A DNA stretch of 64,000 nucleotides from a virus. Taxonomy: Duplodnaviria > Caudoviricetes. The notes beneath the pieces were generated by a model, which searched no databases, was not told the DNA's origin, and worked only from the letters and a program-made list of their open reading frames with translations. A program made the translations under genes and the position numbers. The DNA lies in IMG/VR virus record IMGVR_UViG_3300028833_000112, positions 30,212 to 94,211 of that record; one strand, written 5' to 3'. Positions 41,593 through 42,858 of the stretch are shown here, in pieces (the stretch's first letter is position 1; every line of letters starts with the position of its first letter).

Positions 41593-41868
41593 ATGACTAA
41601 AAGTGAACTGATTGCGAAGGTCAGCGGCTTGACTGCTTTGAACGAGTCGCAGGCGACGAGCGCAACGAACGCGGTGTTCGGCACGATTACCAAGGAACTG
41701 CTCAAGGGGAACAAGGTGCAAATCCTCGGCTTCGGGACGTTCAGCGTGAAAATCCGCAAGGCGCGCAAGGGACGTAACCCGCGCACGGGCGAGGAAATTG
41801 AAATTCCCGCGAGCGTCAACGTCCACTTCAAGCAAAGCAAAAATATCAAGGCGGCGATGAACGAATGA
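41593..41868 (+). CDS. hup: HU family DNA-binding protein
   Basis: MTKSELI...GFGTFSV...RKGRNPRTGEEIEIPA. Confidence 0.95.
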   Translation: MTKSELIAKVSGLTALNESQATSATNAVFGTITKELLKGNKVQILGFGTFSVKIRKARKGRNPRTGEEIEIPASVNVHFKQSKNIKAAMNE

Positions 41869-42375
41869 TTATTGACGGTGTGGAGGTCGTGGCAGAAGGG
41901 TTTGACCCTTCGCCCGATGAAATGAAAAATTATGTGGAGTACACTCGCGAGCGCGTGCCCGGTGTCGATAAAATCACGGTCAAGATGTGCGACGACGGTT
42001 GCGTTGATGTAAAGTACACGAAGCACGGAGAAAAGTTTGAACGAATCAGACGTATAACAGGTTAGAGGATAGCCGTCCGCCGTCGAGCCGAATGAAGACG
42101 ATGGATAATCAGCGCGGTAAAAAACTGGGAAGTCTCACGGAGATAATCAGAGGTGAAGGCGCAAGCCAGCCGCAGAGCATAGGCGGTGAAATAATCCGCC
42201 CAAGAGACCGCGCCACGCACGGCGATTAGCGTGAAAAGATATGCCGAACTGCAGGGCGACTTGCAGAGGGCGGGATAAAAAGCCCGTCGATAACAAAATG
42301 TATCTGGTCGGGACAACGGACAGATGGAACGACGCAAAAAAATCTGAGGAGCGCGACCGCGTTAAACACATGTGA
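41865..42375 (+). CDS. Stand-alone NrdD-like glycyl-radical domain protein; spliced join(41865..42062,42301..42375), 90 aa
   Basis: Exon 1 ends FERIRRITG; exon 2 reads YLVGTTDRWNDAKKSEERDRVKHM*, matching the NrdD C-terminal signature. Confidence 0.88.
42063..42300 (+). ncRNA. Group I self-splicing intron, 238 nt, no homing endonuclease ORF
   Basis: Exon ends in U and intron ends in G; P1 GGU^UA/UAGCC with U-G at the splice site; GGAUA can pair with exon 2 UAUCU (P10); P7-like GCAGAGCAUA / AAGAUAUGCC. Confidence 0.88.
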
Positions 42376-42858
42376 GGGATTTGAAATGTTCGAACAAATG
42401 ATTGATACTCTTGGCTCGCATTTGATGACGGCGTTTAATGCTTTCGTGATTGTGGCGTTGTTTTTTCTCGTTTGCGGAGCGTTGTTTCTAATCGGTAGTG
42501 TGTTGGTTCGATTGGTTTGTTGCGTGAACGAACGCCTTGCCAAAAAGGTTTACGACATCGAAGACCACAACGACGTTTGGAAATGAGAGGATTGAAATGG
42601 AATATTTTCAAGCGCAGGACGGGAAGAAATATTGTTTTAAAAAGTTTTACGGTTTCGGCATGAATTTTGAAACGCTGGCTGTCTTCGGATGTGTATATGA
42701 AGATGATGAAATTTTACTTGGCGAATACGAATCAGAGACAGAATTGCTCAGCGTGGGGGAAGCGCAACGTGAAGCCGAGGAGCAAGGCAAATCGGTTTTC
42801 ATCTTCCCGCCGAAAGGGTTTTCAAAGAGCAGGTGACGTGAACAGAAAGTGTGATGAT

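Follow-up and report, generated by a model that had tools for sequence, protein, structure and literature searches.

A stand-alone NrdD-type glycyl-radical protein encoded by a phage, with a predicted group I intron between its radical Gly and Tyr codons

Introduction

A reading frame that stops immediately after the codon of a radical glycine raises two questions: how can the gene be expressed, and what does its product do? Such a gene is present in a 64,000-nt stretch of DNA from a rumen phage (hereafter, the window), which belongs to a virus record of 94 kb with an estimated completeness of 87%. The translation of its first part ends in FERIRRITG, and the TAG codon that a previous, sequence-only reading had placed immediately after the Gly codon is seen in the window directly behind GGT. 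That reading proposed that a group I intron splits a 90-aa NrdD-type glycyl-radical protein, that the protein is a GrcA-like spare part for NrdD, and that its splicing may be coupled to the nucleotide status of the cell.

A paper from 2021 describes spare-part proteins as known only for formate lyases (PMC8683613), and a review of June 2026 likewise limits stand-alone radical proteins to formate lyases and regards other cases as undetermined (PMC13450708). Surveys of the extensions of ribonucleotide reductases mention a split class II enzyme and not a split class III enzyme (PMC9669993), and our search for a published description of a split class III reductase found none.

Results

Structure of the interrupted gene

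Removal of the insert joins exon 1 in frame to YLVGTTDRWNDAKKSEERDRVKHM and a stop codon, and the exon-exon junction word is ATAACAGGTTATCTGGTC (Table 1). The last base of exon 1 is U, and the insert ends in the terminal G that had been claimed for it. The ATG codon of the gene overlaps the stop codon of an upstream HU-like gene (ATGA), which suggests that the small radical gene may be translated in a coupled manner with that gene. Ten nucleotides downstream of the small radical gene lies a 66-aa ORF (42386-42586) for which one membrane helix is predicted.

A search with exon 1 returned 146 relatives. About half of them are proteins of 89-98 aa with a Pfam NRDD match and an uninterrupted RRITGYL... 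sequence, and the remaining ones end 0-3 residues past RRITG, like the window gene. P0003 and P0004, which are 92% and 86% identical over exon 1, respectively, continue without interruption as RRITG-YLVGTTDRWNDAK, and every residue that is invariant in the family is kept in both exons of the window gene. The gene is interrupted at 11 of 131 loci (130 from viral and genome collections and the window itself), and the insert, of 238-764 nt, always lies precisely at the boundary of the Gly and Tyr codons. The proposal of an insert after the Gly codon of a 90-aa gene was thus borne out by intact homologues that cross the junction unbroken, and its exact borders by the in-frame join, the same homologues, and the common site in 11 genes. 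A metagenome scan with P0003 yielded no close intron-less allele of the window phage; many of its matches were the C-termini of one-piece NrdD genes.

Table 1. Gene parts, intron elements, phage nrdG, and second-family inserts. Positions refer to the window unless a locus is given.
Feature	Position	Strand	Description
Exon 1, small glycyl-radical subunit gene	41865-42062	+	66 codons, the last being the radical Gly66 codon GGT
Group I intron, IA2-like (predicted)	42063-42300	+	238 nt; starts with an in-frame TAG; final G at 42300
Exon 2	42301-42375	+	24 codons and TGA; C-terminal part of the NrdD glycyl-radical domain
P1	42060-42074	+	Exon GGU and intron UA (42060-42064) with guide UAGCC (42070-42074); U-G pair 42062/42072
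P10	42068-42071 with 42301-42304	+	5' part of the guide, GAUA, with exon 2 UAUC
P2 hairpin	42076-42105	+	42076-42084 with 42097-42105; 9 pairs
P3	42112-42117 with 42208-42213	+	Encloses P4, P5, and P6; covariation
P4	42125-42128 with 42147-42150	+	Covariation
P5	42132-42136 with 42140-42144	+	Covariation
P6	42152-42160 with 42165-42171	+	Covariation
P7	42175, 42177-42181 with 42240-42245	+	Bulge at 42176; pseudoknot across P3
P7.1	42182-42186 with 42196-42200	+	100% paired
P8	42214-42218 with 42229-42233	+	Covariation
J8/7	42234-42239	+	AAAAGA
P9	42249-42255 with 42260-42266	+	GNRA loop
P9.1	42269-42274 with 42283-42288	+	Loop AUAAAAAG, conserved
Phage nrdG	G000:C1:28592-29020 (locus L238:1444-1965)		Outside the window
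Family B inserts	L001:3196-3946, L006:3211-3974, L080:3205-3926, L079:3205-3766		Unrelated to family A

Fold and class of the insert

We built a fold by hand from seven close copies of the insert and tested it on 36 distinct core sequences (alignment A3). The tested fold comprises P3, P4, P5, P6, P7, P7.1, P8, P9, and P9.1 with 48 pairs. Among the 36 relatives, 92.2% of 1722 cells were paired, compared with 33-39% for slid partners, and compensatory changes on both sides were observed in 40 of the 48 pairs. The covariation score was 0.66; column shuffles gave 0.18, none of 500 shuffles reached 0.66, and slid partners gave approximately 0.1. A single-sequence fold alone recovers P3-P6, P7.1, P9, and P9.1 (z = -2.1).

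The elements at the splice sites were followed in the seven close copies. P1 is formed in all of them, with the U-G pair in six and a C-G pair in L076, whose Gly codon is GGC. The GAUA/UAUC pairing of P10 is also formed in all seven, with 3-4 pairs in each, and P2 is paired throughout, with compensatory changes in L045, L084, and L003. The earlier assignments of P1 with its U-G splice-site pair and of P10 are supported by these pairings, as is that of the P7-like elements: P7 is 100% paired and crosses P3 as a pseudoknot. At columns 104/210, beside the bulged base of P7, a G-C pair is present in 36 of 36 sequences, and the pair across the bulge (columns 102/211) is A-U in 22 and G-C in 13. A bulged P7 with a G-C pair is the standard layout of the guanosine site in the Tetrahymena and phage introns, and the invariant P7 pair is a candidate for this site.

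The J8/7 motif across the relatives is AAAAGAUAU. Together with the P3/P7 pseudoknot and the bulged P7, it fits a group I core, and the covariation of the core in 36 relatives supports the claim that the insert is a group I intron. The intron can be placed in the phage-typical IA group because the P7.1 helix, in which all five pairs covary among the 36 relatives, sits between P7 and P3'. Many relatives contain an extra insert inside the P7.1 loop, which we read as a putative P7.2; it is missing from the window copy. The sole ORF of the insert has 45 aa (42092-42229) and is too short for a homing endonuclease, in agreement with the earlier statement that none is encoded. By its comparative fold, the insert is an IA2-like group I intron without an endonuclease, for which self-splicing is predicted. 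An intein was rejected based on the in-frame stops and the RNA covariation, and a group II intron because the insert, at 238 nt, is too small for one and has a different fold. With the ribozyme core present, there was no need to invoke translational bypass.

A check with a group I covariance model, which had been suggested as a means of confirmation, did not detect the insert: Rfam RF00028 left it unmatched at the gathering score and even at E = 10. The relatives of the window intron and a second intron family described below were also unmatched by Rfam. The missing Rfam match and the lack of an endonuclease would suit a dead gene, in which the intron no longer splices and a 66-aa product is inert. 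We regard this explanation as very improbable, because no core helix is lost, the U-G pair, P10, and the terminal G are likewise preserved, the exons retain every invariant residue, and both copies of the small gene in Quinella sp. 1Q5 are interrupted although no other carrier of the radical motif was found in that genome, which implies splicing. In the 204-kb phage contig of locus L006, Rfam detects a classical group I intron (L006:1689-2039, 69.6 bits) in another gene, approximately 1.2 kb upstream of the small gene.

Intron families at the Gly-Tyr site

Relatives of the intron were collected by a J8/7-P7 pattern and then by nhmmer. They form a large family on viral contigs, located in many different genes including terminase. 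The sequence-only reading had suggested that splicing couples the small protein to the nucleotide status; this finds no support. Relatives of the intron occur in terminase and a wide range of other genes, and micromolar guanosine nucleotides are enough for group I introns, whereas cells hold millimolar GTP.

Two families of inserts occupy the Gly-Tyr site of the small gene. Those of family A, the kind in the window, are 238-444 nt long and have no long ORF. Those of family B (Table 1) are 562-764 nt long and contain ORFs of 200-240 aa with Pfam HNH_3 (E = 1e-11 to 1e-14); the ORF at L079 is shortened and lacks the HNH motif. Such sharing of one site by two mobile-element families is what is usually seen when elements home into a conserved target.

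In Lactobacillus phage JCL1032, terL is annotated as a joined CDS. The intervening sequence of this gene matches the family profile along the full core (E = 4e-27). This terL intron was reportedly shown to self-splice by Riipinen and Alatossava in 2004.

The window intron shares 93% identity with that of a small gene on the chromosome of Quinella sp. 1Q7 (L075), whereas the identity of exon 1 between the two genes is just 68% at the DNA level and 59% at the protein level. The difference between intron and exon 1 identity therefore argues for a recent movement of the intron between phage and host copies. In Quinella sp. 1Q5, the two small-gene copies (L250/L255 and L251/L254, on G041:C10 and C17) are interrupted by a family A intron of 245 nt in one case and by an insert of approximately 700 nt in the other. 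These introns presumably splice, because the interrupted copies are the only radical genes found in that genome.

Identity of the encoded protein

On its own, exon 2 gives matches to three NCBIfam NrdD models, in each case over the last 23-24 model positions (best E = 2.9e-7), and to positions 542-562 of Pfam NRDD (16.9 bits). The intact homologue P0003 matches Pfam NRDD (PF13597) over positions 531-562 with 36.2 bits, compared with a cut-off of 26.2. A profile of 52 intact members matched one solved protein, the P. copri NrdD 8p23, at residues 702-738 (E = 9e-9), which extend from just past the zinc ribbon to the C-terminus. The NrdD-type glycyl-radical identity proposed earlier is supported by all three kinds of match. 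The small protein gave no match with the PF01228 Gly_radical and GrcA models. The radical Gly and its flanking invariant residues are kept in all 52 intact members and in the window copy.

The 90-aa protein contains neither the catalytic barrel nor the four-Cys zinc ribbon of NrdD, both of which are on a separate NrdD body. Only one Cys is invariant in the small-protein family, so the four-Cys zinc site is absent from the small chain. No family in Pfam, PHROGs, or NCBIfam was matched by the first ~55 residues. An AF2 model of the small protein alone had a pLDDT of 71, with the Gly loop below 50; the first ~55 residues were modeled as a small strand-helix-strand-strand domain (pLDDT ~80). A Foldseek search of this model against the PDB returned nothing at E ≤ 0.001. 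The protein thus appears to consist of a small α/β N-domain and the last ~35 residues of NrdD, with the radical Gly and the following helix.

NrdD without a radical tail in the likely host family

The NrdD partner was sought in five Negativicutes genomes carrying the small gene, namely two Selenomonadales MAGs, Selenomonas sp. GACV-9, Anaerovibrio sp. RM50, and Quinella sp. 1Q5. Six NrdD genes were found in them, and each ends a few residues past the second CxxC of the ribbon and lacks RxxGY; one example has the C-terminus ...CPHCHRKEVETGTFHIKRLKPEDK-stop. Pfam NRDD is covered at positions 1-540 by the Anaerovibrio body and at 531/533-562 by the small proteins. Because this coverage is complementary, with a short overlap of approximately 8-10 positions, the two chains together make up one complete NrdD. 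The small gene is present once or twice in each of the five genomes, in which RxxGY was not found elsewhere; a search of these incomplete genomes for class I or class II reductases found none.

The same division was observed in an even sample of 40-41 Selenomonadaceae genomes. Approximately 36 NrdD matches stop at profile position 547-558, and 35 of these are accompanied by a separate small ORF matching positions 549-581, which lies directly downstream of nrdD in 18 of the 35. A one-piece NrdD is present in only 3-4 of the sampled genomes. The small gene occurs in operons of the types nrdD-small-nrdG (L240), nrdD-small (L086), and small-nrdG (L082 and L083), and its other setting in hosts is a conserved flavodoxin/acetyltransferase/MscS neighbourhood. 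The host-family NrdD has no tail, and the small gene is the only motif carrier found there and is often located beside nrdD or nrdG; therefore, the small protein is most likely a regular subunit.

In five Clostridia genomes with related small genes, the main NrdD is a one-piece enzyme. The small-gene family therefore occurs both beside tail-less and beside one-piece NrdD. A Roseburia MAG has a one-piece NrdD (L260) and a second, tail-less NrdD that ends at profile position 550 (L262, G043:C3:7608-9473). In a Bacillota MAG, the small radical gene is present in tandem, with the two copies approximately 300 nt apart (L111:2857 and 3168). Two Selenomonadales genomes have NrdD bodies within frames of 1127-1149 aa (L243 and L244; G038:C19 and G041:C122), in which the NrdD match is broken near profile position 270; this looks like an intein in the large chain.

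Predicted complex of the two chains

A complex was predicted for the pair encoded by the Anaerovibrio operon, a 756-aa body and a 101-aa small chain, as a host pair rather than for the phage protein. Its score was 0.72, compared with 0.00 for the best of three controls, and the value may partly reflect recall of the solved one-piece NrdD structures. The mark for this score is reached by 51 of 78 solved complexes and by 2 of 108 mismatched pairs. The runs agreed in at least 96% of contacts, with a partner pLDDT of at least 80.

In the predicted complex, body residues ~740-752 form a strand pair with residues 57-62 in the N-domain of the small chain, and the segment around the radical Gly touches the ribbon and the barrel. 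The model suggests that the N-domain may exist to hold the detached tail in place.

Activase and likely host of the phage

The phage encodes an NrdG (150 bits, above the curated cut-off) with the CxxxCxxC motif. Its gene adjoins a 404-aa integrase gene approximately 43 kb upstream of the small radical gene. No NrdD match was found in the phage record; as the record is 87% complete, its missing part may contain such a gene. Of 36 further phage records that carry the small gene, four have any NrdG match and two have one above the cut-off; for small-gene phage records that are at least 90% complete, NrdG is present in 1 of 21. The pairing of the small gene with an activase is not a general phage module. 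The closest named relatives of exon 1 come from Selenomonadaceae MAGs. A Quinella-like host is pointed to by two kinds of evidence only, the names of the homologues and the 93% identical intron.

Discussion

Once spliced, the gene probably supplies a phage version of the radical subunit that is standard in the host; this version would be activated by the NrdG of the phage or the host and used on the host NrdD body. Unspliced RNA would be translated only up to the TAG codon, and group I splicing between the Gly66 and Tyr67 codons would restore the frame. In a two-piece class III reductase, the mature protein would be the glycyl-radical subunit with a gene of its own, and it would dock on a host NrdD body that ends just past the zinc ribbon. 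According to the model of the host pair, the C-terminal tail of the body would add a strand to the sheet of the N-domain, and the Gly loop would enter the barrel. NrdG would then install the radical on the docked small subunit. With its own small subunit and NrdG, the phage would presumably raise or maintain the dNTP supply during its replication in an anaerobic host.

The sequence-only reading regarded the protein as a true spare part of the GrcA/YfiD type, by which a phage copy would replace oxygen-cleaved radical domains and the reductase would recover after exposure to oxygen. Several observations are in line with it: the overlap of approximately 8-10 profile positions with the NrdD body resembles that of GrcA with cleaved PFL (PMC13450708), related small genes coexist with one-piece NrdD in Clostridia, and the phage brings its own activase. 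In the likely host family, however, NrdD has no built-in radical domain to replace, so every copy would be a regular part, and these data contain no link of the gene to oxygen stress. The idea therefore fits that family poorly. In the Clostridia with one-piece NrdD, the related proteins may act as spare parts or as competitors. As an account of the phage gene, we consider the spare-part idea unlikely. A variant, to which we give similarly little weight, is that the radical tail is a consumable cartridge: the NrdD body would be long-lived and its oxygen-cleaved small subunits would be swapped for new ones, with the phage providing cartridges and activase of its own. If true, pyruvate formate-lyase would no longer be the only glycyl radical enzyme with a known spare-part system.

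The phage protein might alternatively be a decoy or inhibitor that fills the docking site of the host NrdD or titrates NrdG, thereby redirecting or stopping nucleotide synthesis. Dominant-negative copies of host subunits are common in phages, and family likeness to the modeled host chain predicts the same interface for the phage protein. However, the radical Gly and its invariant flanks have been retained throughout the intact members and in the window copy, the phage also encodes an activase, and it would gain little by blocking a reductase that is the only one found in the host lineage. We judge a decoy to be quite improbable, more so than a spare part. A further possibility, less likely than the cartridge, is that the unspliced message yields a 66-aa stub ending at the radical Gly that could block docking, in which case splicing would set the ratio of blocker to active subunit.

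As a regular radical subunit, the protein can be compared with one-piece NrdD, which acts with NrdG in P. copri (8p23), phage T4, and T. maritima. The last ~35 residues are the glycyl-radical segment in both (RITGYLVGTTDRWN..RV.H), and an activase of the NrdG type is likewise present in the window phage. Unlike in one-piece NrdD, this segment forms a chain apart from the enzyme body, together with a 55-residue N-domain for which our searches revealed no relative by sequence or fold, and the partner NrdD ends past the zinc ribbon. GrcA/YfiD of E. coli and Y06I of phage T4, which are autonomous cofactors of PFL (PMC8683613; PMC13450708), are likewise small, have the radical domain only, and include a phage version; like GrcA, the small NrdD-type protein overlaps the end of the large chain. 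Unlike for GrcA, the parent is NrdD and not PFL, there is no Pfam Gly_radical match, and the parent in the host family has no such domain of its own, so that the small protein would be a subunit and not a replacement. The split class II enzyme NrdJa/NrdJb (cited in PMC9669993) likewise comprises a catalytic chain and a small C-terminal chain; it differs in class and split point, and its detached piece carries no radical.

The stand-alone NrdD-type radical proteins thus form a large conserved family that is the norm in one bacterial family with tail-less NrdD and is also borne by phages. They offer a direct system for asking how one chain can use a radical installed on another and whether the part that is sensitive to oxygen can be exchanged.

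The intron shares P1-P10, the P3/P7 pseudoknot, P7.1, and the terminal G with the phage IA2 introns of JCL1032 terL, T4 td, nrdB, and nrdD/sunY, Twort, and a Bacillus prophage (PMC2504315). Like them, it lies in the most conserved codons of a phage gene, which again belongs to ribonucleotide reductase. It differs from these introns in that its host gene is a stand-alone gene of 90 aa, its site is between the radical Gly and Tyr codons, it has no homing endonuclease, and the Rfam model misses it. It is a clear example of a mobile ribozyme that targets the best-conserved codons of its gene. In some phages, the family A intron appears to be highly invasive. Two such introns lie a few hundred bases apart at L132 (3854-4115 and 4232-4493) and at L157 (3341-3581 and 3714-3949), and paired family A introns are also present on the viral contigs L181, L189, L227, and L171.
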